From Escherichia coli (GTDB lineage Bacteria; Pseudomonadota; Gammaproteobacteria; Enterobacterales; Enterobacteriaceae), in assembly GCF_016903815.1 (NCBI RefSeq), contig NZ_CP069973.1: a DNA stretch of 64,000 bases; one strand, given 5' to 3'. The translations under genes were made by a program, and so were the position numbers. Within the stretch, counting starts at the first letter, position 1, and each line of letters starts with the position of its first letter. This document shows positions 2,793 to 64,000 of the stretch, in pieces. The notes below the pieces were generated by a model that did not search any database, was not told the DNA's origin, and worked only from the letters and a program-made list of their open reading frames with translations.

Positions 2793-3752
2793 ATGAAAAC
2801 AGAGACTCCATCCGTAAAAATTGTTGCTATCACCGCTGACGAAGCGGGGCAACGTATCGATAACTTTTTGCGTACCCAATTGAAAGGCGTACCAAAAAGT
2901 ATGATTTACCGTATTTTGCGTAAAGGCGAAGTGCGGGTGAACAAAAAACGTATTAAGCCTGAATATAAACTCGAAGCGGGTGATGAGGTGCGTATCCCAC
3001 CGGTTCGCGTTGCTGAACGGGAAGAAGAGGCGGTTTCGCCACATCTGCAAAAGGTGGCGGCGCTGGCGGACGTCATCTTATATGAAGATGACCATATCCT
3101 GGTGCTGAATAAACCTTCCGGTACGGCGGTACATGGCGGTAGTGGTTTAAGCTTCGGCGTTATCGAAGGTTTGCGGGCGTTGCGCCCGGAAGCGCGGTTC
3201 CTTGAACTGGTTCATCGTCTCGACCGGGACACTTCAGGTGTGTTGCTGGTAGCGAAAAAACGCTCGGCGTTGCGTTCTCTGCATGAGCAATTACGTGAAA
3301 AAGGGATGCAAAAAGATTACCTGGCGCTGGTGCGCGGTCAGTGGCAGTCGCATGTGAAGAGCGTTCAAGCGCCGTTATTGAAAAATATTCTGCAAAGCGG
3401 CGAACGTATCGTGCGTGTGAGTCAGGAAGGCAAACCGTCGGAAACACGCTTTAAAGTGGAAGAACGCTATGCTTTTGCCACCCTGGTGCGTTGTAGCCCG
3501 GTAACAGGGCGTACTCATCAGATCCGTGTTCATACACAGTATGCGGGTCATCCGATTGCCTTTGACGATCGCTACGGTGACCGTGAATTTGACAGACAGC
3601 TCACTGAAGCAGGCACGGGATTAAATCGCCTGTTCCTGCACGCTGCAGCGTTGAAGTTTACTCATCCGGGGACCGGTGAGGTGATGCGTATCGAAGCGCC
3701 GATGGATGAAGGTTTGAAGCGTTGTTTGCAAAAGCTGCGTAACGCGCGCTAA
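2793..3752 (+). CDS. rluC: 23S rRNA pseudouridine synthase RluC
   Basis: 319-aa ORF with RluA-family motifs (HRLDRDTSG), conserved position opposite rne. Confidence 0.93.
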   Translation: MKTETPSVKIVAITADEAGQRIDNFLRTQLKGVPKSMIYRILRKGEVRVNKKRIKPEYKLEAGDEVRIPPVRVAEREEEAVSPHLQKVAALADVILYEDDHILVLNKPSGTAVHGGSGLSFGVIEGLRALRPEARFLELVHRLDRDTSGVLLVAKKRSALRSLHEQLREKGMQKDYLALVRGQWQSHVKSVQAPLLKNILQSGERIVRVSQEGKPSETRFKVEERYAFATLVRCSPVTGRTHQIRVHTQYAGHPIAFDDRYGDREFDRQLTEAGTGLNRLFLHAAALKFTHPGTGEVMRIEAPMDEGLKRCLQKLRNAR

Positions 3753-3783
3753 TACAAGCATATAAACCTGATAATGGGCGGTT

Positions 3784-3856
3784 GGCCTGATAAGGCGTTT
3801 ACGCCGCATCAGGCCGCCAGCACCGATTGCCGGATGCGAAGTAACCGCATCCGGCG
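3784..3856. repeat. REP (repetitive extragenic palindromic) elements
   Basis: Imperfect palindromes ggcctgataaggcgtttacgccgcatcaggcc and gccggatgcgaagtaaccgcatccggcg. Confidence 0.6.
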
Positions 3857-11054: not shown

Positions 11055-11080
11055 AAAAGGTCCGCTTGCGGGCCTTTTTT
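11055..11080. terminator. Rho-independent (bidirectional-looking) terminator after fabF
   Basis: aaaaggtccgcttgcgggcctttttt: GC stem flanked by an A-run and a T-run. Confidence 0.6.
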
Positions 11081-11081
11081 C

Positions 11082-11794
11082 TTGTGCACAGAAAACCCCC
11101 AGCTAGGCTGGGGGTTCCGGAAAGCTTTCAGCTTTAAGCCAGTTATTAAAACCCCTTTTGATTTGTTAAAACACCTTGCGGTCTGGCAACTGCAAGTGTC
11201 AAACAAGAAATCAAAAGGGGGTCCCAATGGGGAACGAAAAGAGCTTAGCGCACACCCGATGGAACTGTAAATATCACATAGTTTTTGCGCCAAAATACCG
11301 AAGACAGGTGTTCTACAGAGAGAAGCGTAGAGCAATAGGCAGTATTTTGAGAAAGCTGTGTGAGTGGAAAAGTGTACGGATTCTGGAAGCTGAATGCTGT
11401 GCAGATCATATCCATATGCTTGTGGAGATCCCGCCCAAAATGAGCGTATCCGGCTTTATGGGATATCTGAAAGGGAAAAGCAGTCTGATGCTTTACGAGC
11501 AGTTTGGTGATTTGAAATTCAAATACAGGAACAGGGAGTTCTGGTGCAGAGGGTACTACGTCGATACGGTGGGTAAGAACACGGCGAAGATACAGGATTA
11601 CATAAAGCACCAGCTTGAAGAGGATAAAATGGGAGAGCAGTTATCGATTCCCTATCCGGGCAGCCCGTTTACGGGCCGTAAGTAACGAAGTTGGATGCAA
11701 ATGTCAGATCGTGTGCGCCTGTTAGGGCGCGGCTGGTAAGAGAGCCTTATAGGCGCATTTGAAAAACCTCCGGCTATGCCGGAGGATATTTATT
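11082..11794 (+). mobile_element. IS200-type insertion sequence, copy 1
   Basis: 713-bp block identical to 27980-28692; left-end hairpin cccccagctaggctggggg; single Y1 transposase gene; absent from this intergenic site in E. coli K-12 as I recall it. Confidence 0.9.
11227..11685 (+). CDS. tnpA: IS200/IS605-family Y1 (HUH) transposase TnpA
   Basis: 152 aa from internal Met with RBS aaaggggg; HUH motif HIHMLVEIPP; ORF-track 5' extension judged non-coding. Confidence 0.9.
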   Translation: MGNEKSLAHTRWNCKYHIVFAPKYRRQVFYREKRRAIGSILRKLCEWKSVRILEAECCADHIHMLVEIPPKMSVSGFMGYLKGKSSLMLYEQFGDLKFKYRNREFWCRGYYVDTVGKNTAKIQDYIKHQLEEDKMGEQLSIPYPGSPFTGRK

Positions 11795-16432: not shown

Positions 16433-17866
16433 ATGTTTAAGAATGCATTTGCTAACCTGCAAAAGGTCGGTAAATCGCTGATGCTGCCGGTATCCGTACT
16501 GCCTATCGCAGGTATTCTGCTGGGCGTCGGTTCCGCGAATTTCAGCTGGCTGCCCGCCGTTGTATCGCATGTTATGGCAGAAGCAGGCGGTTCCGTCTTT
16601 GCAAACATGCCACTGATTTTTGCGATCGGTGTCGCCCTCGGCTTTACCAATAACGATGGCGTATCCGCGCTGGCCGCAGTTGTTGCCTATGGCATCATGG
16701 TTAAAACCATGGCCGTGGTTGCGCCACTGGTACTGCATTTACCTGCTGAAGAAATCGCCTCTAAACACCTGGCGGATACTGGCGTACTCGGAGGGATTAT
16801 CTCCGGTGCGATTGCAGCGTATATGTTTAACCGTTTCTACCGTATTAAGCTGCCTGAGTATCTTGGCTTCTTTGCCGGTAAACGCTTTGTGCCGATCATT
16901 TCTGGCCTGGCTGCCATCTTTACTGGCGTTGTGCTGTCCTTCATTTGGCCGCCGATTGGTTCTGCAATCCAGACCTTCTCTCAGTGGGCTGCTTACCAGA
17001 ACCCGGTAGTTGCGTTTGGCATTTACGGTTTCATCGAACGTTGCCTGGTACCGTTTGGTCTGCACCACATCTGGAACGTACCTTTCCAGATGCAAATTGG
17101 TGAATACACCAACGCAGCAGGTCAGGTTTTCCACGGCGACATTCCGCGTTATATGGCGGGTGACCCGACTGCGGGTAAACTGTCTGGTGGCTTCCTGTTC
17201 AAAATGTACGGTCTGCCAGCTGCCGCAATTGCTATCTGGCACTCTGCTAAACCAGAAAACCGCGCGAAAGTGGGCGGTATTATGATCTCCGCGGCGCTGA
17301 CCTCGTTCCTGACCGGTATCACCGAGCCGATCGAGTTCTCCTTCATGTTCGTTGCGCCGATCCTGTACATCATCCACGCGATTCTGGCAGGCCTGGCATT
17401 CCCAATCTGTATTCTTCTGGGGATGCGTGACGGTACGTCGTTCTCGCACGGTCTGATCGACTTCATCGTTCTGTCTGGTAACAGCAGCAAACTGTGGCTG
17501 TTCCCGATCGTCGGTATCGGTTATGCGATTGTTTACTACACCATCTTCCGCGTGCTGATTAAAGCACTGGATCTGAAAACGCCGGGTCGTGAAGACGCGA
17601 CTGAAGATGCAAAAGCGACAGGTACCAGCGAAATGGCACCGGCTCTGGTTGCTGCATTTGGTGGTAAAGAAAACATTACTAACCTCGACGCATGTATTAC
17701 CCGTCTGCGCGTCAGCGTTGCTGATGTGTCTAAAGTGGATCAGGCTGGCCTGAAGAAACTGGGCGCAGCGGGCGTAGTGGTTGCTGGTTCTGGTGTTCAG
17801 GCGATTTTCGGTACTAAATCCGATAACCTGAAAACCGAGATGGATGAGTACATCCGTAACCACTAA
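16433..17866 (+). CDS. ptsG: PTS glucose-specific EIICB component
   Basis: 477-aa ORF: multi-pass membrane domain plus C-terminal IIB domain (CITRLR). Confidence 0.95.
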
Positions 17867-27950: not shown

Positions 27951-27981
27951 CCCCGCGACATGCCGTGTCGCGGGGATTTTT
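27951..27981 (+). terminator. Rho-independent terminator after bhsA
   Basis: ccccgcgacatgccgtgtcgcggggattttt; IS200 copy 2 begins in its T-tail. Confidence 0.7.
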
Positions 27982-28692
27982 GTGCACAGAAAACCCCCAG
28001 CTAGGCTGGGGGTTCCGGAAAGCTTTCAGCTTTAAGCCAGTTATTAAAACCCCTTTTGATTTGTTAAAACACCTTGCGGTCTGGCAACTGCAAGTGTCAA
28101 ACAAGAAATCAAAAGGGGGTCCCAATGGGGAACGAAAAGAGCTTAGCGCACACCCGATGGAACTGTAAATATCACATAGTTTTTGCGCCAAAATACCGAA
28201 GACAGGTGTTCTACAGAGAGAAGCGTAGAGCAATAGGCAGTATTTTGAGAAAGCTGTGTGAGTGGAAAAGTGTACGGATTCTGGAAGCTGAATGCTGTGC
28301 AGATCATATCCATATGCTTGTGGAGATCCCGCCCAAAATGAGCGTATCCGGCTTTATGGGATATCTGAAAGGGAAAAGCAGTCTGATGCTTTACGAGCAG
28401 TTTGGTGATTTGAAATTCAAATACAGGAACAGGGAGTTCTGGTGCAGAGGGTACTACGTCGATACGGTGGGTAAGAACACGGCGAAGATACAGGATTACA
28501 TAAAGCACCAGCTTGAAGAGGATAAAATGGGAGAGCAGTTATCGATTCCCTATCCGGGCAGCCCGTTTACGGGCCGTAAGTAACGAAGTTGGATGCAAAT
28601 GTCAGATCGTGTGCGCCTGTTAGGGCGCGGCTGGTAAGAGAGCCTTATAGGCGCATTTGAAAAACCTCCGGCTATGCCGGAGGATATTTATT
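27980..28692 (+). mobile_element. IS200-type insertion sequence, copy 2
   Basis: Identical to 11082-11794 by eye, same orientation. Confidence 0.9.
28125..28583 (+). CDS. tnpA: IS200/IS605-family Y1 transposase TnpA
   Basis: Same 152-aa protein as copy 1. Confidence 0.9.
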   Translation: MGNEKSLAHTRWNCKYHIVFAPKYRRQVFYREKRRAIGSILRKLCEWKSVRILEAECCADHIHMLVEIPPKMSVSGFMGYLKGKSSLMLYEQFGDLKFKYRNREFWCRGYYVDTVGKNTAKIQDYIKHQLEEDKMGEQLSIPYPGSPFTGRK

Positions 28693-57946: not shown

Positions 57947-59005
57947 GTGCGGGTATTACTTCGACCTGTTCTGGTACCGGAACTTGGGCTGGTGGTGCTA
58001 AAACCGGGCCGTGAATCCATGCCGGTATTCCACAATACCCGGGTACTGGTGGAGCCGGAACCGAAAAGCATGCGTAATCTGTCGTCCGGGGTCGTTCCTG
58101 CCGTTCGCCAGCCGCTGGCGGAGGATAAATCATTACTGCCATTTTTCAGCGACGAACGAGTGATTCGTGCTGCTGGTGGCGCTGGCGCATTGTCTGACTG
58201 GTTACTGCGCCATGTTAAATCCTGCCAGTGGCCACACGGCGATTATCACCACAGTGAAACCGTCATTCACCGTTATGGTACCGGCGCAATGGTGTTGTGC
58301 TGGCACTGCGACAACCAGCTGCGCGACCAGACCTCCGAATCACTCGGGCAACTTGCTCACCAAAACCTGTCTGCATGGATGATTGACGTCATACGCCATG
58401 CAATGAATGGCTCGCAGGAACGGGAATTATCGCTGGCTGAATTATCCTGGTGGGCGGTCCGCAATCAGGTGGCGGACGCGCTACCGGAAGCGGTATTACG
58501 TCGTTCGCTGGGGTTGCGTGCGGAAAAAATCCGCTCAATGTACCGTGAAAGCGACATCGTACCGGGAGAGCAGACCGCCACCAGCATACTGAAACAGCGC
58601 ACAAAAAATCTTGCGCCGCTGCCTCACGCCCACCAGCAACAGAACCCACCACAGGAAAAGACGGTGGTCAGCATTGCCGTTGATCCGGAATCTCCGGCTC
58701 AGTATCTCCAGCGCCAGAAACCACAACGGGAAGAGATGCCTGTATACACGCGCTGGGTAAAAACGCAGAAATGCATGACGTGTGGCAATCAGGCAGATGA
58801 TCCGCATCACATCATTGGTCATGGACTGGGAGGGATGGGAACAAAGGCTGACGATTTGTTTGTTATTCCGCTGTGTCGTAAATGCCATAACGAACTACAC
58901 GCCGGGGTAAAAGATTTTGAAGAAAAACACGGTAGTCAGTTGTTGTTGCTGATTCGTTTTTTAATGCACGCGAGAAATTCGGGTGTTCTGAAGTGGAAAG
59001 CATAA
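57947..59005 (+). CDS. DUF968-family phage protein
   Basis: C-terminal Cys/His cluster CMTCGNQADDPHHIIGHG...PLCRKCHNELH; position before rusA/Q as in Qin (ydfU); true start may be an internal Met. Confidence 0.6.
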   Translation: MRVLLRPVLVPELGLVVLKPGRESMPVFHNTRVLVEPEPKSMRNLSSGVVPAVRQPLAEDKSLLPFFSDERVIRAAGGAGALSDWLLRHVKSCQWPHGDYHHSETVIHRYGTGAMVLCWHCDNQLRDQTSESLGQLAHQNLSAWMIDVIRHAMNGSQERELSLAELSWWAVRNQVADALPEAVLRRSLGLRAEKIRSMYRESDIVPGEQTATSILKQRTKNLAPLPHAHQQQNPPQEKTVVSIAVDPESPAQYLQRQKPQREEMPVYTRWVKTQKCMTCGNQADDPHHIIGHGLGGMGTKADDLFVIPLCRKCHNELHAGVKDFEEKHGSQLLLLIRFLMHARNSGVLKWKA

Positions 59006-59374
59006 ATGACCGAACGCATAGAATTTGTTTTGCCTTACTCGCCGACGGTGAACACTTACTGGCGACGCCGTGGCAGCACATATTTTGTATCAAAAGCCGG
59101 GGAGCGTTATCGCCGGGCAGTGGCGCTTATTGTTCGCCAGCAGCGACTGAAATTAAGCCTGTCCGGACGGCTGGCAATAAAAATTATTGCAGAGCCACCG
59201 GATAAGCGTCGTCGTGACCTGGACAATATTCTGAAAGCACCACTGGATGCGCTGACGCACGCGGGGTTGTTAATGGACGATGAGCAGTTTGATGAAATCA
59301 ATATTGTACGTGGCCAGCCAGTATCTGGTGGACGGCTGGAGATAAGAATTACAGAGGTGGGTGTGCATGAATAA
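59006..59374 (+). CDS. rusA: Holliday-junction resolvase RusA
   Basis: 122 aa; PDKRRRDLDNILKAPLDALTHAG and GGRLEIRITEVG match RusA. Confidence 0.88.
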   Translation: MTERIEFVLPYSPTVNTYWRRRGSTYFVSKAGERYRRAVALIVRQQRLKLSLSGRLAIKIIAEPPDKRRRDLDNILKAPLDALTHAGLLMDDEQFDEINIVRGQPVSGGRLEIRITEVGVHE

Positions 59375-60056
59375 CCAGTATTTACAGTTTGTTCGTGAGC
59401 AACTCATGATTGCCACTGCAGATCTCAGTGGGTCGACAAAATGCCAGCTGGAAGCCTGGCAGGAAAATGCCCTGTTCGATACAGGGCGTTACAGACGCAA
59501 AAAAATTCGTTACCGCGATGAGGTAACCGGAAAAATGATCACGCGGGATAATCCCCCGATCCAGGGTAAACAATCACTGGCGAAAGGCTCATCAATTGCG
59601 CTGGTCAGTCCTGTTGAGTTTGCAACATCATCGTGGCGGCGTGCTGTTCTGGAACTGGAAGAACATCAGAAGGCGTGGTTGTTGTGGTGTTATGGCGGAA
59701 ACATTTGCTGGGAGCATCAGATCGCGATAACGCAGTGGGGGTGGAGTGAATTTAAAACTCAGTCCGGCTCCAGAAAAATTGCAGTGAAAACGCTGGAGCG
59801 TGTGAAGAAGTTGATCTGGCTGGCGGCACAGGATGTCAGAGGATGGGTTACCGGGTGTGAGGTCTACCAGAGACAGGAGCTTGCCAGACTGTGTGGAGTT
59901 AAGCCTGATAACTGGAGCCATAATTATGCGAACTACTGGCGTGAGATGTGCGATATTTTTAAGCGCCTCGATAGAGAATCCTTGATTTGCTCCGTGAAAA
60001 TAAGAGCGCAACAAAAAGCGACCTTTTCACGACGAGATATTGCAAAAGTCAATTAA
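59367..60056 (+). CDS. Putative late-gene antiterminator (Q-like)
   Basis: 229 aa, overlapping rusA stop, directly upstream of a tR'-like terminator and the lysis genes; assigned by position. Confidence 0.5.
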   Translation: MNNQYLQFVREQLMIATADLSGSTKCQLEAWQENALFDTGRYRRKKIRYRDEVTGKMITRDNPPIQGKQSLAKGSSIALVSPVEFATSSWRRAVLELEEHQKAWLLWCYGGNICWEHQIAITQWGWSEFKTQSGSRKIAVKTLERVKKLIWLAAQDVRGWVTGCEVYQRQELARLCGVKPDNWSHNYANYWREMCDIFKRLDRESLICSVKIRAQQKATFSRRDIAKVN

Positions 60057-60117
60057 ATCGCGTATGTTTCGTATAAATCTGATATTTTGCCGATTTTGTA
60101 CGTGATGGCAAAGTAAG

Positions 60118-60146
60118 AAAAAACCACCGCCAGGTGGTTTTTTTTA
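60118..60146 (+). terminator. tR'-like rho-independent terminator downstream of Q
   Basis: gaaaaaaaccaccgccaggtggttttttttat. Confidence 0.75.
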
Positions 60147-60268
60147 TGTCCGAAAATCGCGTCAGTACAGTAAACGCGCTGGTGGTTGCGAATACGGGTC
60201 TTTCAGCTTGCCGGCTTTTTCGACAAGAGTTATTGGTATGTCACGTTAACCGGAAAAGGGAAAAAGAC

Positions 60269-60466
60269 ATGCTAAAACAGCAGGATATGACAGAAGCCGC
60301 CAGAGTGGTGTTTAATGAATTAAGCGTTACCGACCCGGCGACAGTCAGGGAGATTGCACAGAATACTTACCTTTCACGCGAACGCTGCCAGTTAATACTG
60401 ACCCAGCTTGTTATGGCGGGTCTGGCAGACTATCAGTTTGGTTGTTACAGACACCTTCAGTCCTGA
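60269..60466 (+). CDS. Hypothetical small protein
   Basis: 65 aa from ATG 60269 (MLKQQDMTEAARVV...) with RBS aaggg; stop lies inside a terminator hairpin. Confidence 0.35.
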   Translation: MLKQQDMTEAARVVFNELSVTDPATVREIAQNTYLSRERCQLILTQLVMAGLADYQFGCYRHLQS

Positions 60467-60478
60467 AGGCTTTTTTAT
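60454..60478 (+). terminator. Rho-independent terminator
   Basis: ccttcagtcctgaaggcttttttattt. Confidence 0.6.
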
Positions 60479-60835
60479 TTGTGGTAAATGGGCGGCTGGT
60501 GGGTGTGGTGGTTGTTGCTTTCCCGTTGCTGAAAAAGAAAACGCCAGACTGTTAGCCGGGTATCAGTTAGCGGGAGAAATTTTTAAATACTTCACAATTC
60601 AGGCGGTTGACTGTTGTCTGGTTTGCGGGGAGTTTGTTAAAAGAAACTGGCATGGTGAATCCCCCTGTGCGGAGGGGCAATCAGCGAGTAGGTATATGGG
60701 ATAATCGCGGATTCAGGTGCTGGTACTGAATTCACCGGGAGGCACCCGGCACCATGCAATGGCACATAGCGCCACTCTCCAGCCCCTCTCCGGAGGGGCT
60801 GTTTATATTGATTTTGTCAGATGTGAGTAAACTCC

Positions 60836-61171
60836 TTATGGACTTTGTTGTTTTAGCCCATAAGGACATATTTGCAGAGTGCAACGATTATTAAAGCATT
60901 CATTCAATACGTTATCTGTATTTGTAGGGCATTCCTGGCTGTTTTTGATTAAATTCCAGAATGTTTTATTGAATGGTACTACGTTGTAAATGGTTACAGG
61001 TAGCACTTTGTTATTGAGCATGATACCTGTGTGAGTCAGTGTAAATATACTTTCAGGAGGTAAGAAAGCATCCGATTGATACCAGATTATTAATTTTATT
61101 TTACTCCATATGACTGAAAAAGATATTCCGCATGATGGCTGGATAACTGTATCAATCACAATCCACTTCAT
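60836..61171 (-). CDS. Hypothetical protein in AT-rich island (antisense to the late operon)
   Basis: 111-aa ORF open despite AT-rich (stop-codon-prone) sequence; four Cys in the C-terminal third; AT-rich upstream region. Confidence 0.4.
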
Positions 61172-61416
61172 TTAGTTTCCTTGTTTATGCCTTGCTGGTG
61201 ATGTTCTGAAAAGTATAAATGATATTTTTGATTGTAAACCATAGAGCAGAATTATTTTTCTGATGTTGTTTATTGTTTATTTAAATGCAGGGTGGTTTAT
61301 ATCTCGTCTTGTAGTTTATCCATGCATATCTGCTTGATGATGAGGTTTTTATTTAAGGTATGGTTTTGTGTTTTTTCTGTATTACATGTCAGGTATTTTA
61401 AAGAATCATTTTTCAG

Positions 61417-61620
61417 ATGGTGGAAAGAACCATGGCATTTAAACACTATGATGTTGTCAGGGCGGCGTCGCCGTCAGATCTTGCGGAAAAGCTGACACAT
61501 AAACTGAAAGAGGGCTGGCAGCCGTTTGGTAGTCCGGTGGCCATAACCCCTTATACCCTGATGCAGGCGATTGCAGCAGAAGGTGATGTGGTGGTCAGTG
61601 GTGCAACTGAGCCGGAGTGA
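61417..61620 (+). CDS. Hypothetical small protein
   Basis: 67-aa ORF; stop overlaps the next small ORF start (GTGA). Confidence 0.4.
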   Translation: MVERTMAFKHYDVVRAASPSDLAEKLTHKLKEGWQPFGSPVAITPYTLMQAIAAEGDVVVSGATEPE

Positions 61621-61778
61621 TACTACGTCATCGTACTGGCCCGGCATTCCAGGCCATAAAAGACGGTCTGGCAGTGGGACTAAATGCACTGACGCTGACG
61701 GATATTACCAAAAATGCAACGTATGGCGTTGAGATAGAAAGTCTGGTGCTGGAGATAAATGCACCGGCATCATCATAA
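61617..61778 (+). CDS. Hypothetical small protein (translationally coupled)
   Basis: Hand-translated 53-codon frame from GTG 61617; below the ORF-track cutoff. Confidence 0.25.
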
Positions 61779-61927
61779 AAAGTGAGCCAGTCAAATGGAA
61801 GGTATCGTTAAACTCACCGGTAGTGTCAGTGGGTCGTCTGAGACGCCTGCATGAGTTATCAGAGCCATCAGTACTTAACTGGTGGCTTTTTTATTGTTGT
61901 CAGCTTCCGGATAACGGGAGACGGGGT

Positions 61928-62143
61928 ATGTACCAGATGGAAAAAATCACAACAGGTGTGTCATACACCACGTCAGCGGTGGGAACGGGCTACTGGTTCC
62001 TGCAGTTGCTGGACAGGGTTTCCCCGTCTCAGTGGGCGGCAATAGGCGTGCTGGGGAGTCTGCTGTTTGGGCTGCTGACATATCTGACTAACCTGTATTT
62101 CAAAATCAAAGAGGACCGGCGTAAGGCGGCGCGGGGAGAGTAA
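61928..62143 (+). CDS. S: Class II pinholin, phage 21 S-type
   Basis: [51 protein letters not shown] closely matches recalled S21; dual start motif M-Y-Q-M at 61928/61937. Confidence 0.88.
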
Positions 62144-62147
62144 AGTG

Positions 62148-63038
62148 ATGAATAAAAAATATGAACTGGTTGTTAAGGGGATAAATAATTACGGGGATAA
62201 GGTTACTGTTACTGTGAAGTCGGAAGGTGACGGGCAAGCGTCGCTGTTGTTGCCAGATGTGGCGATTAGTCTTGACCGTACTGAAGGTGCCACGCTGGAG
62301 TTTTACGAAGCTGAGGCGAAAAAGCAGGCGAAGCAGTTTTTCATGGATGTTGCTGCCGGGTTATGTGAATGGAACGAACCGTTGCCGGAAAAGCGCCCCG
62401 TAATTTTAGAGGCGCAGGATGTGTTGATAACCTACAAAGGAAAGCTACCGGGAAGAATTACTTGTTCTCTGAAGATGCCGCCGTCAACACTGCGGTCAGA
62501 AAAAGATGATGTTGAATCACGTATTGAAAAACTGGAGAGCTACGTCGTTGAGCTGAATAAGAAATGGTCGATATTGGTGCCTTCTGGCGATGAAAAGCAG
62601 TTTGCTGCGTTTGACGATTATTGTCGGAAAGTGATGAGCAGAAATCTCGCAGAGTGTTTCAGTATTCATAATGATAATTTCAGTGACCCGGAATGGGAGT
62701 GTAACCGGCCATCCTTTGTTGTATCCGGTGATGCTGGGAAAATAACCATCTCAGAAAATGGGAAAGTAACACCTCCATCGCACCAGCACAGTGAGGAGCT
62801 CATTGAATTTGCCATTGATTACCTGAAGAACAATAAAAAGCAGGGGCTGATGAAGCGCGTTGGCCGTTGCATGGGATATCTTCAGGTAGCCGCTGAGATT
62901 GAAGCGCTGGCCAGTGGTGCTGATAAGGATGCAATTGTGCGGGAGGCTCTTCTTCGTGATTTTAATACTCCACCCTTTAAAAAAGTGCCGGCTTACTGGC
63001 TTCATCCGGGGCTGACTTATCTTAAAGTGCGTATTTAG
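62148..63038 (+). CDS. Hypothetical 296-aa protein inserted between holin and endolysin
   Basis: ATG 62148 five nt after the holin stop with RBS ggggagag; no recognised catalytic motif. Confidence 0.6.
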   Translation: MNKKYELVVKGINNYGDKVTVTVKSEGDGQASLLLPDVAISLDRTEGATLEFYEAEAKKQAKQFFMDVAAGLCEWNEPLPEKRPVILEAQDVLITYKGKLPGRITCSLKMPPSTLRSEKDDVESRIEKLESYVVELNKKWSILVPSGDEKQFAAFDDYCRKVMSRNLAECFSIHNDNFSDPEWECNRPSFVVSGDAGKITISENGKVTPPSHQHSEELIEFAIDYLKNNKKQGLMKRVGRCMGYLQVAAEIEALASGADKDAIVREALLRDFNTPPFKKVPAYWLHPGLTYLKVRI

Positions 63039-63074
63039 TGGGCCAGGGACAGCGGCTGAATATTTAATATATCC

Positions 63075-63608
63075 ATGAACACCAAAATCAAATACGGCCT
63101 GTCGGCTGCCGTTCTGGCGCTGATTGCCGCTGGTGCGCCTGCGCCTGACATTCTCGACCAGTTTCTGGATGAAAAGGAAGGCAACCACACCACGGCATAC
63201 CGTGATGGTGCAGGTATCTGGACCATCTGCCGTGGTGCCATCATGGTGGATGGCAAACCTGTCGTTCCGGGCATGAAGTTGTCGAAGGAAAAATGCGACC
63301 AGGTTAACGCCATTGAGCGTGATAAAGCGCTGGCGTGGGTGGAGAAAAACATCAGAGTGCCGCTGACCGAACCCCAGAAAGCGGGGATCGCGTCATTCTG
63401 TCCGTACAACATTGGTCCCGGTAAGTGTTTCCCGTCGACGTTTTACAGACGAATTAATGCTGGTGATCGAAAAGGTGCCTGCGAAGCGATTCGCTGGTGG
63501 ATTAAGGACGGTGGCAGAGACTGCCGTATTCGTTCAAACAACTGTTACGGTCAGGTATCCCGTCGTGACCAGGAGAGCGCGCTGGCGTGCTGGGGTATCG
63601 ACAGATAA
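63075..63608 (+). CDS. R: SAR endolysin (T4-type lysozyme, GH24)
   Basis: Gly/Ala-rich N-terminal SAR segment; catalytic E-x8-D-x5-T (EGNHTTAYRDGAGIWT). Confidence 0.88.
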   Translation: MNTKIKYGLSAAVLALIAAGAPAPDILDQFLDEKEGNHTTAYRDGAGIWTICRGAIMVDGKPVVPGMKLSKEKCDQVNAIERDKALAWVEKNIRVPLTEPQKAGIASFCPYNIGPGKCFPSTFYRRINAGDRKGACEAIRWWIKDGGRDCRIRSNNCYGQVSRRDQESALACWGIDR

Positions 63609-63765
63609 GCAGAATATTTTGCTGAAAAATGAGGAATGGCCACGCGGGCGGATAACACGAAATCCTGCGAACTGGCGAAACGTAAGTGAATAAAAGTAAA
63701 AACCCCGTTTGTTGGCACCAAGCGAGGTTTTGTGTTTCTGACCTTGAGTAAGGCAAGGGAGAACA

Positions 63766-63947
63766 TGGCGAAGTGTAAACGAATTCTGTTGAGGTTGACT
63801 ATGAAAAATGGCCTTGAACTGAAAGCGCCTGTAACTGATGACATCAGCAGAGCACTGGCTTTTGCCATTAAGTGGGTGGCGGTCGGTGTTGCTGTGTCCC
63901 CGATGCTGTATGGGCTGGCAAAACTGGTCATTGCGTTGAAATCGTGA
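63766..63947 (+). CDS. Putative small membrane protein downstream of endolysin
   Basis: 59 aa from ATG 63766; C-terminal hydrophobic segment; does not look like Rz/Rz1. Confidence 0.3.
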
Positions 63948-64000
63948 AGGGAGGATTAAGCATGTCAGACAAACTCATAACGCTGGCGAAGATCCTCTGT

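Follow-up and report, generated by a model that had tools for sequence, protein, structure and literature searches.

The 64,000-nucleotide stretch of Escherichia coli DNA analysed here (hereafter the window) is collinear with E. coli strain 222 (99.998% over 44.4 kb), and its genes follow the order ptsG ... potD, potC, a prophage integrase, early phage genes, hokD, rem, DUF968, rusA, Q, iraL and the lysis genes. In strain 222 the prophage adjoins potC, as it does in uropathogenic E. coli CFT073, and the integration site is that of the CFT073 potB prophage. Between the Q antiterminator and the class II holin, and on the opposite strand to both, lies an ATG-initiated open reading frame (ORF) of 111 aa that sits in a conspicuously AT-rich island. 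The GC content of positions 60811-61416 is 0.323, whereas the window as a whole and both flanks have 0.50, making this the lowest-GC 606-bp stretch among those sampled across the 64 kb; the coding sequence itself has a GC content of 0.342, and the upstream segment 61172-61416 one of 0.294. The island and its antisense ORF between Q and the lysis genes had been singled out in a first-pass annotation, and its coordinates, strand and AT-richness proved to be as claimed. The features of the locus are collected in Table 1.

Table 1. Features of the iraL island and of the surrounding prophage DNA, in window coordinates
Feature	Position	Strand	Basis
iraL gene, 111 codons and a stop; product an RssB anti-adaptor (IraM/IraL family)	60836..61171	-	ORF list, identity to CFT073 IraL
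Cysteine tail motif, IraL residues 81-103	60863-60931	-	sequence
iraL 5' UTR, 33 nt; transcription start 61204	61172..61204	-	published 5'-RACE sequence
Shine-Dalgarno-like AAGGAAAC ahead of the ATG	61182..61175	-	sequence
-10 element TATACT (-13..-8)	61217..61212	-	relative to mapped start
-35-like element TTTACA (-34..-29), 15-nt spacer	61238..61233	-	relative to mapped start
Core promoter	61212..61238	-	start mapping; sigma-70 assignment by PMC4045071
Strongly AT-rich DNA between iraL and the divergent esterase remnant, upstream region of both	61239..61416	-	GC 0.29
PhoP-box-like site, 1 mismatch (within upstream region)	61267-61283		pattern search
GC-rich hairpin beyond the iraL stop (distance 35 nt)	60780..60801		terminator scan
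Q antiterminator	59361-60056	+
Late promoter TTGCAA...TATAAA, then hairpin and T8 run	60040-60147	+	sequence
STnc100 sRNA (RF02076)	60621-60810	+	132 bits vs gathering score 47
67-aa DUF1737 ORF, then 53-aa ORF	61417-61778	+	PHROG 143, ends only
Class II holin	61928-62143	+
297-aa ORF between holin and lysozyme	62145-63038	+	PHROG 1085, end to end
Segments similar to the CFT073 IS200C element	11068-11794; 27977-28692		about 99% identity each

An ORF of this length had been judged unlikely to survive by chance in AT-rich DNA, and our data bear this out: among 2000 dinucleotide-preserving shuffles of the island, only 12 yielded a frame of 111 aa or more. The opposite reading, in which the ORF is an accidental open frame in an AT-rich spacer and encodes nothing, can draw on those same 12 shuffles, AT-rich DNA being stop-rich and a long frame in it unexpected yet possible. 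It is already refuted by the rest of the evidence. The dN/dS ratio is 0.10-0.19 against K-12 iraM and the O157 paralogue (with high, saturating dS), a profile search of 1.84 billion representative proteins returned 94 relatives, most of them 105-125 aa long, a close relative has a solved structure, and genetics and biochemistry have been published for the identical protein. As judged from these substitution patterns and relatives, the ORF is a real protein-coding gene under purifying selection.

The first-pass annotation had found no recognisable family for the product, a statement that homology and structure show to be wrong. The protein is identical at 111 of 111 positions to IraL of CFT073, with which it shares the RefSeq accession WP_000871291.1; the CFT073 gene, carried on the potB prophage, was described as iraL by Hryckowian et al. 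(mBio 2014; PMC4045071). The two coding sequences agree at 333 of 336 nt, the three changes being synonymous and none non-synonymous, and the window gene thus qualifies as iraL under the 2014 survey, which asked for an identity of 95% or more with the CFT073 iraL coding region. Identity to K-12 IraM is 62% over 107 aa (about 71% at the nucleotide level), and the protein scores 162 bits against NCBIfam NF007393 (anti-adapter protein IraM; PRK09919), above the curated cut-off of 121 and over positions 1-110 of 111. It also matches the sequence of PDB 8twd_A (IraM residues 1-78 bound to RssB) with E=9e-32, and PHROG 4407, listed there as "unknown function", end to end. A Pfam scan of the protein gave no match even at E<=10; homologues carry a precomputed match to PF11183 (PmrD), and the negative scan therefore reflects sensitivity or library version rather than a missing family. 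We also considered whether the gene is an orthologue of iraM of the K-12 type and rejected this, in view of upstream regions that do not align, a locus in the potB prophage rather than beside e14/icdC, and an amino acid identity of only 62%.

An AlphaFold model built with 17 homologues predicts a beta-barrel plus helix over residues 1-78 (pLDDT 62-83), with a mean pLDDT of 63.6 for the model that denotes moderate confidence only. Residues 1-78 of the model superpose on 8twd_A, the best PDB match, with a TM-score of 0.86 and an rmsd of 1.5 Å, followed by PmrD (4hn7) with a TM-score of 0.72, in agreement with the PmrD-like fold reported for IraM (PMC10844676). In the IraM complex 14 residues in three clusters contact the receiver domain, linker and C-terminal domain of RssB (PMC10844676); IraL has the same residue at 10 of these 14 positions and a conservative replacement at the remaining four (T13S, L75I, H63N and I64V). 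PmrD, which shields phospho-PmrA, and the IraM/IraL proteins both bind a receiver-domain protein and share the beta-barrel plus helix, whereas PmrD is only 14% identical to IraL, lacks the four-cysteine tail and has PmrA rather than RssB as its target.

This kinship invites the alternative that IraL acts mainly on a target other than RssB, either as a PmrD-like connector shielding another phosphorylated response regulator or as a toxin or phage-exclusion factor, the latter idea having been raised at first pass. The PmrD-like fold (PmrD binding PmrA), a reported mode of contact with RssB that differs from that of IraM (PMC4045071) and a conserved four-cysteine tail that has no assigned role can all be cited for it. 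We nevertheless regard it as very improbable, given that the identical protein binds RssB and stabilises sigma-S in the published experiments (PMC4045071) and that the RssB-contact residues are conserved. The toxicity or phage-exclusion version in particular finds no support, as a search with the PADLOC defence models matched no family at E<=0.01, no toxin-like feature was seen in the protein, and the published function is sigma-S stabilisation.

Beyond the barrel, the four cysteines noted at first pass in the C-terminal third are indeed present (C81, C92, C97 and C102), and a further one, C14, lies in the N-terminal domain. All of 17 close homologues keep the four tail cysteines as well as P82 and P103, which form the motif C-P-x9-10-C-x4-C-x4-C-P. 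Across 53 full-length representatives sharing less than 50% identity, C81, C92, C97 and C102 are kept in 49, 44, 46 and 43 sequences, respectively, and most of the exceptions look truncated or frameshifted. The corresponding tail of IraM was removed for crystallography and was called less conserved and flexible (PMC10844676). In the AlphaFold model residues 80-111 are disordered with pLDDT below 50, and the model therefore speaks neither for nor against a metal site. Word searches for the tail cysteines or zinc found nothing in the IraM structure paper (PMC10844676) or in two anti-adaptor papers, the sections of PMC4045071 consulted make no mention of either, and a full-text literature search for zinc or cysteines in the IraM/IraL tail returned only noise. 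The tail may be the one feature of this locus that is perhaps still unexplored. Although speculative, it is tempting to think that the tail might be a zinc-binding or redox-sensing module that has so far escaped recognition and that governs how stable or active the anti-adaptor is, an idea that we advance only tentatively.

Turning to expression, the 5' end of iraL mRNA has been mapped by RACE (ACATCACCAGCAAGGCATAAACAAGGAAACCA) and a sigma-70 promoter assigned to the gene (PMC4045071). On the minus strand of the window an exact match begins at position 61204, both for the published 5'-RACE sequence ACATCACCAGCAAGGCATAAACAAGGAAAC and for the first 30 nt of ACATCACCAGCAAGGCATAAACAAGGAAACCA. A generic promoter scan did not pick up the iraL promoter, whose -35-like spacer is short at 15 nt. 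A Fur-box scan gave a best match of 12/19 inside the coding sequence and nothing in the promoter, and the reported rise of IraL in a CFT073 fur mutant may therefore be indirect. Control by PhoP was also considered, and we do not propose it: the PhoP-box-like site is the single one in the window, where about one is expected by chance, and the iraM upstream region is unrelated. In fact, the upstream regions of iraL and K-12 iraM do not align, which fits the different regulation reported for the two genes. Whether the hairpin downstream of iraL serves as its terminator is uncertain; its T-run is found on the + strand only and the - strand has no U-tract, the terminator scan listing the + strand only.

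Between -96 and +45, three bases of the window depart from the CFT073 sequence: A replaces T at -28, directly 3' of TTTACA, A replaces G at -1, and T replaces C at +28. These differences raise the question of whether the gene is iraL but the window copy is silent or very weakly expressed, contributing little to sigma-S in its host strain, be it through the base change beside the -35-like hexamer, through H-NS silencing of the AT-rich island, or through both. An upstream GC content of 0.29 is typical of H-NS targets and would be compatible with such silencing. The three departures from the tested CFT073 allele point the same way, and a similar doubt was voiced in the 2014 paper over a promoter variant, a -35 point mutation of unstated effect, in JJ1886 iraL2 and other strains (PMC4045071). 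On the other side, no damage is seen in the -10 element, around the start site or in the coding sequence, whose only changes relative to CFT073 are synonymous. Moreover, the window promoter/leader allele (-28A, -1A, +28T; 61170-61250) is the commonest one, occurring exactly in 790 of 1,443 carrier genomes compared with 32 for the CFT073 allele, as far as these genome counts can be trusted given that clonal oversampling could inflate the larger figure. On balance we consider a silent copy unlikely, and we infer that the window allele is expressed despite its three promoter and leader differences.

What the protein does has been established in CFT073, where, in log phase, an iraL deletion reduces the amount of sigma-S and cuts its half-life by half (PMC4045071). 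Loss of iraL has the same effect on the sigma-S level in Shigella sonnei, iraL with a -100..+33 promoter fragment restores sigma-S stability, and two-hybrid and pull-down assays show binding of IraL to RssB, in a manner different from that of IraM (PMC4045071). We therefore consider it very probable that the window gene is the iraL moron and that its product blocks RssB and stabilises sigma-S in the lysogen. The identification is based here on the identity to IraL, the promoter and start sequence, the predicted fold, the retained RssB contacts, evidence of purifying selection and the setting within a prophage; that the window protein binds RssB and stabilises sigma-S would follow from the published work on the identical CFT073 protein.

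In the proposed mechanism, a sigma-70 promoter belonging to iraL itself (start 61204) would drive its transcription in the lysogen, in the direction opposite to Q-dependent late transcription. The PmrD-like beta-barrel of IraL (residues 1-78) would bind the response-regulator-like adaptor RssB, which in its bound state would be unable to hand sigma-S (RpoS) to the ClpXP protease. Stabilised sigma-S would in turn raise the general stress regulon even in growing cells. Raised RpoS in growing cells is thought to aid stress tolerance and the niche adaptation of uropathogenic E. coli and Shigella, and iraL would represent one way for a prophage to rewire a core host regulator. Since iraL is antisense to Q-dependent late transcription, induction of the prophage may also switch the gene off, late antisense transcription presumably being the agent of the shut-off. 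Such a shut-off would couple sigma-S stability to the lysogenic state, a possibility that we put forward with some reserve.

The distribution of the island was surveyed by megablast with positions 60800-61420: of the 5,426 complete E. coli genomes searched, 1,445 carry it, and the matches listed were all annotated "anti-adapter protein IraM". The island is also present in 4 phage genomes on deposit. The upstream AT-rich region is kept as a unit with the gene in 1428 genomes. iraL is antisense between Q and the holin in all seven contexts inspected (six read by annotation and the window itself by its ORF list); these include three genomes besides strain 222 and CFT073 and one deposited phage genome, in which the order is STnc100, iraL, a DUF1737/SASA esterase gene and the holin. 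A tRNA scan of window positions 58000-64000 detected none; other iraL prophages carry Ile/Arg tRNA genes in this interval. In a lambdoid prophage of JJ1886, Q is directly followed by the holin with nothing in between, from which it follows that the island is dispensable for the phage; the JJ1886 region that we compared has an intact potB and an icd prophage that lacks iraL. Features of a moron are therefore present, namely a mapped promoter of its own, an atypical GC content (0.32 versus 0.50), a slot among phage operon genes, and dispensability. We are highly confident that this island represents iraL, carried as a moron by a lambdoid prophage inserted at potB. The earlier proposal of a moron of foreign composition in the Q-to-lysis slot, with its own promoter in the AT-rich upstream region, was well founded, the 5'-RACE start falling at 61204, and the cues on which it relied (the AT-rich island, the antisense ORF and the Q-to-S slot) correctly pointed to a genuine lysogenic-conversion gene. 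iraL is a true moron gene that has already been published with its target, as has the structure of its paralogue IraM.

Comparison with known systems places the window gene closest to that of CFT073, with which it shares the protein, the mRNA 5' end sequence, the -10 element and the potB integration site. The module of STnc100, iraL, esterase remnant and holin is common to both prophages at about 94% identity, over window positions 60502-62483 only. On the other hand, the two differ in their Q gene, and an IS200 element and three tRNA genes of CFT073 are absent from the window prophage; the iraL genes themselves are separated by three synonymous changes in the coding sequence and by three base changes in the promoter and leader. 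K-12 IraM (b1160) belongs to the same family and has the same fold and four-cysteine tail, with 10 of the 14 RssB-contact residues identical, and both genes are AT-rich (GC 0.34) and phage-associated. In contrast to iraL, K-12 iraM adjoins the e14 element rather than occupying a Q-to-S slot and has an unrelated upstream region. According to the literature, Mg2+ starvation induces iraM, whereas the action of IraL is seen in log phase without stress (PMC10844676; PMC4045071).

A third IraM/IraL paralogue, WP_001303568.1, is found in the Stx2c prophage of E. coli O157:H7 SS52 (positions 3503-3826 of locus L005). Like iraL, it is antisense in the Q-to-holin interval and immediately upstream of a SASA/NanS-p esterase gene, and its contact-cluster residues match those of IraL except at position 13. 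It differs in being 107 aa long, with 78% nucleotide identity to iraL, in having a higher GC content (0.41), and in lying directly after the Shiga toxin genes stx2c A and B. Our searches found no functional study of this protein.

Several neighbouring features were recorded in passing. The prophage-associated STnc100 sRNA ends in the GC-rich hairpin plus T-run, which form its terminator, and is convergent with iraL, ending 25 nt from the iraL stop; STnc100 has been related, in a 2026 preprint, to the PasD sRNAs found in Stx phages. The 67-aa and 53-aa ORFs divergent from iraL match the first 58 and the last 51 positions, respectively, of the 634-aa PHROG 143, and are therefore read as remnants of a SASA/NanS-p-type esterase gene from which about 520 codons of the interior have been lost; an intact esterase occupies the same spot in other iraL prophages (L005-L007). 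The 297-aa ORF between holin and lysozyme corresponds to a PHROG family of 296 aa and unknown function, with no NCBIfam or PADLOC match. The RefSeq annotation of strain 222, whose sequence is identical here, covers only the first third of this ORF and treats it as a truncated pseudogene of the YdfR family. Just after Q, the late promoter is followed by the hairpin ACCGCCAGGTGGT and its T8 run, and the unit resembles lambda pR'-tR'; its Rfam matches (isrK, STnc370 and Phe leader) are all sub-threshold. Finally, of the two IS200C-like segments, the aligned strain 222 stretch (from window position 17091) matches the first only, and the strain 222 IS200C copy is located at the position of the second window segment.
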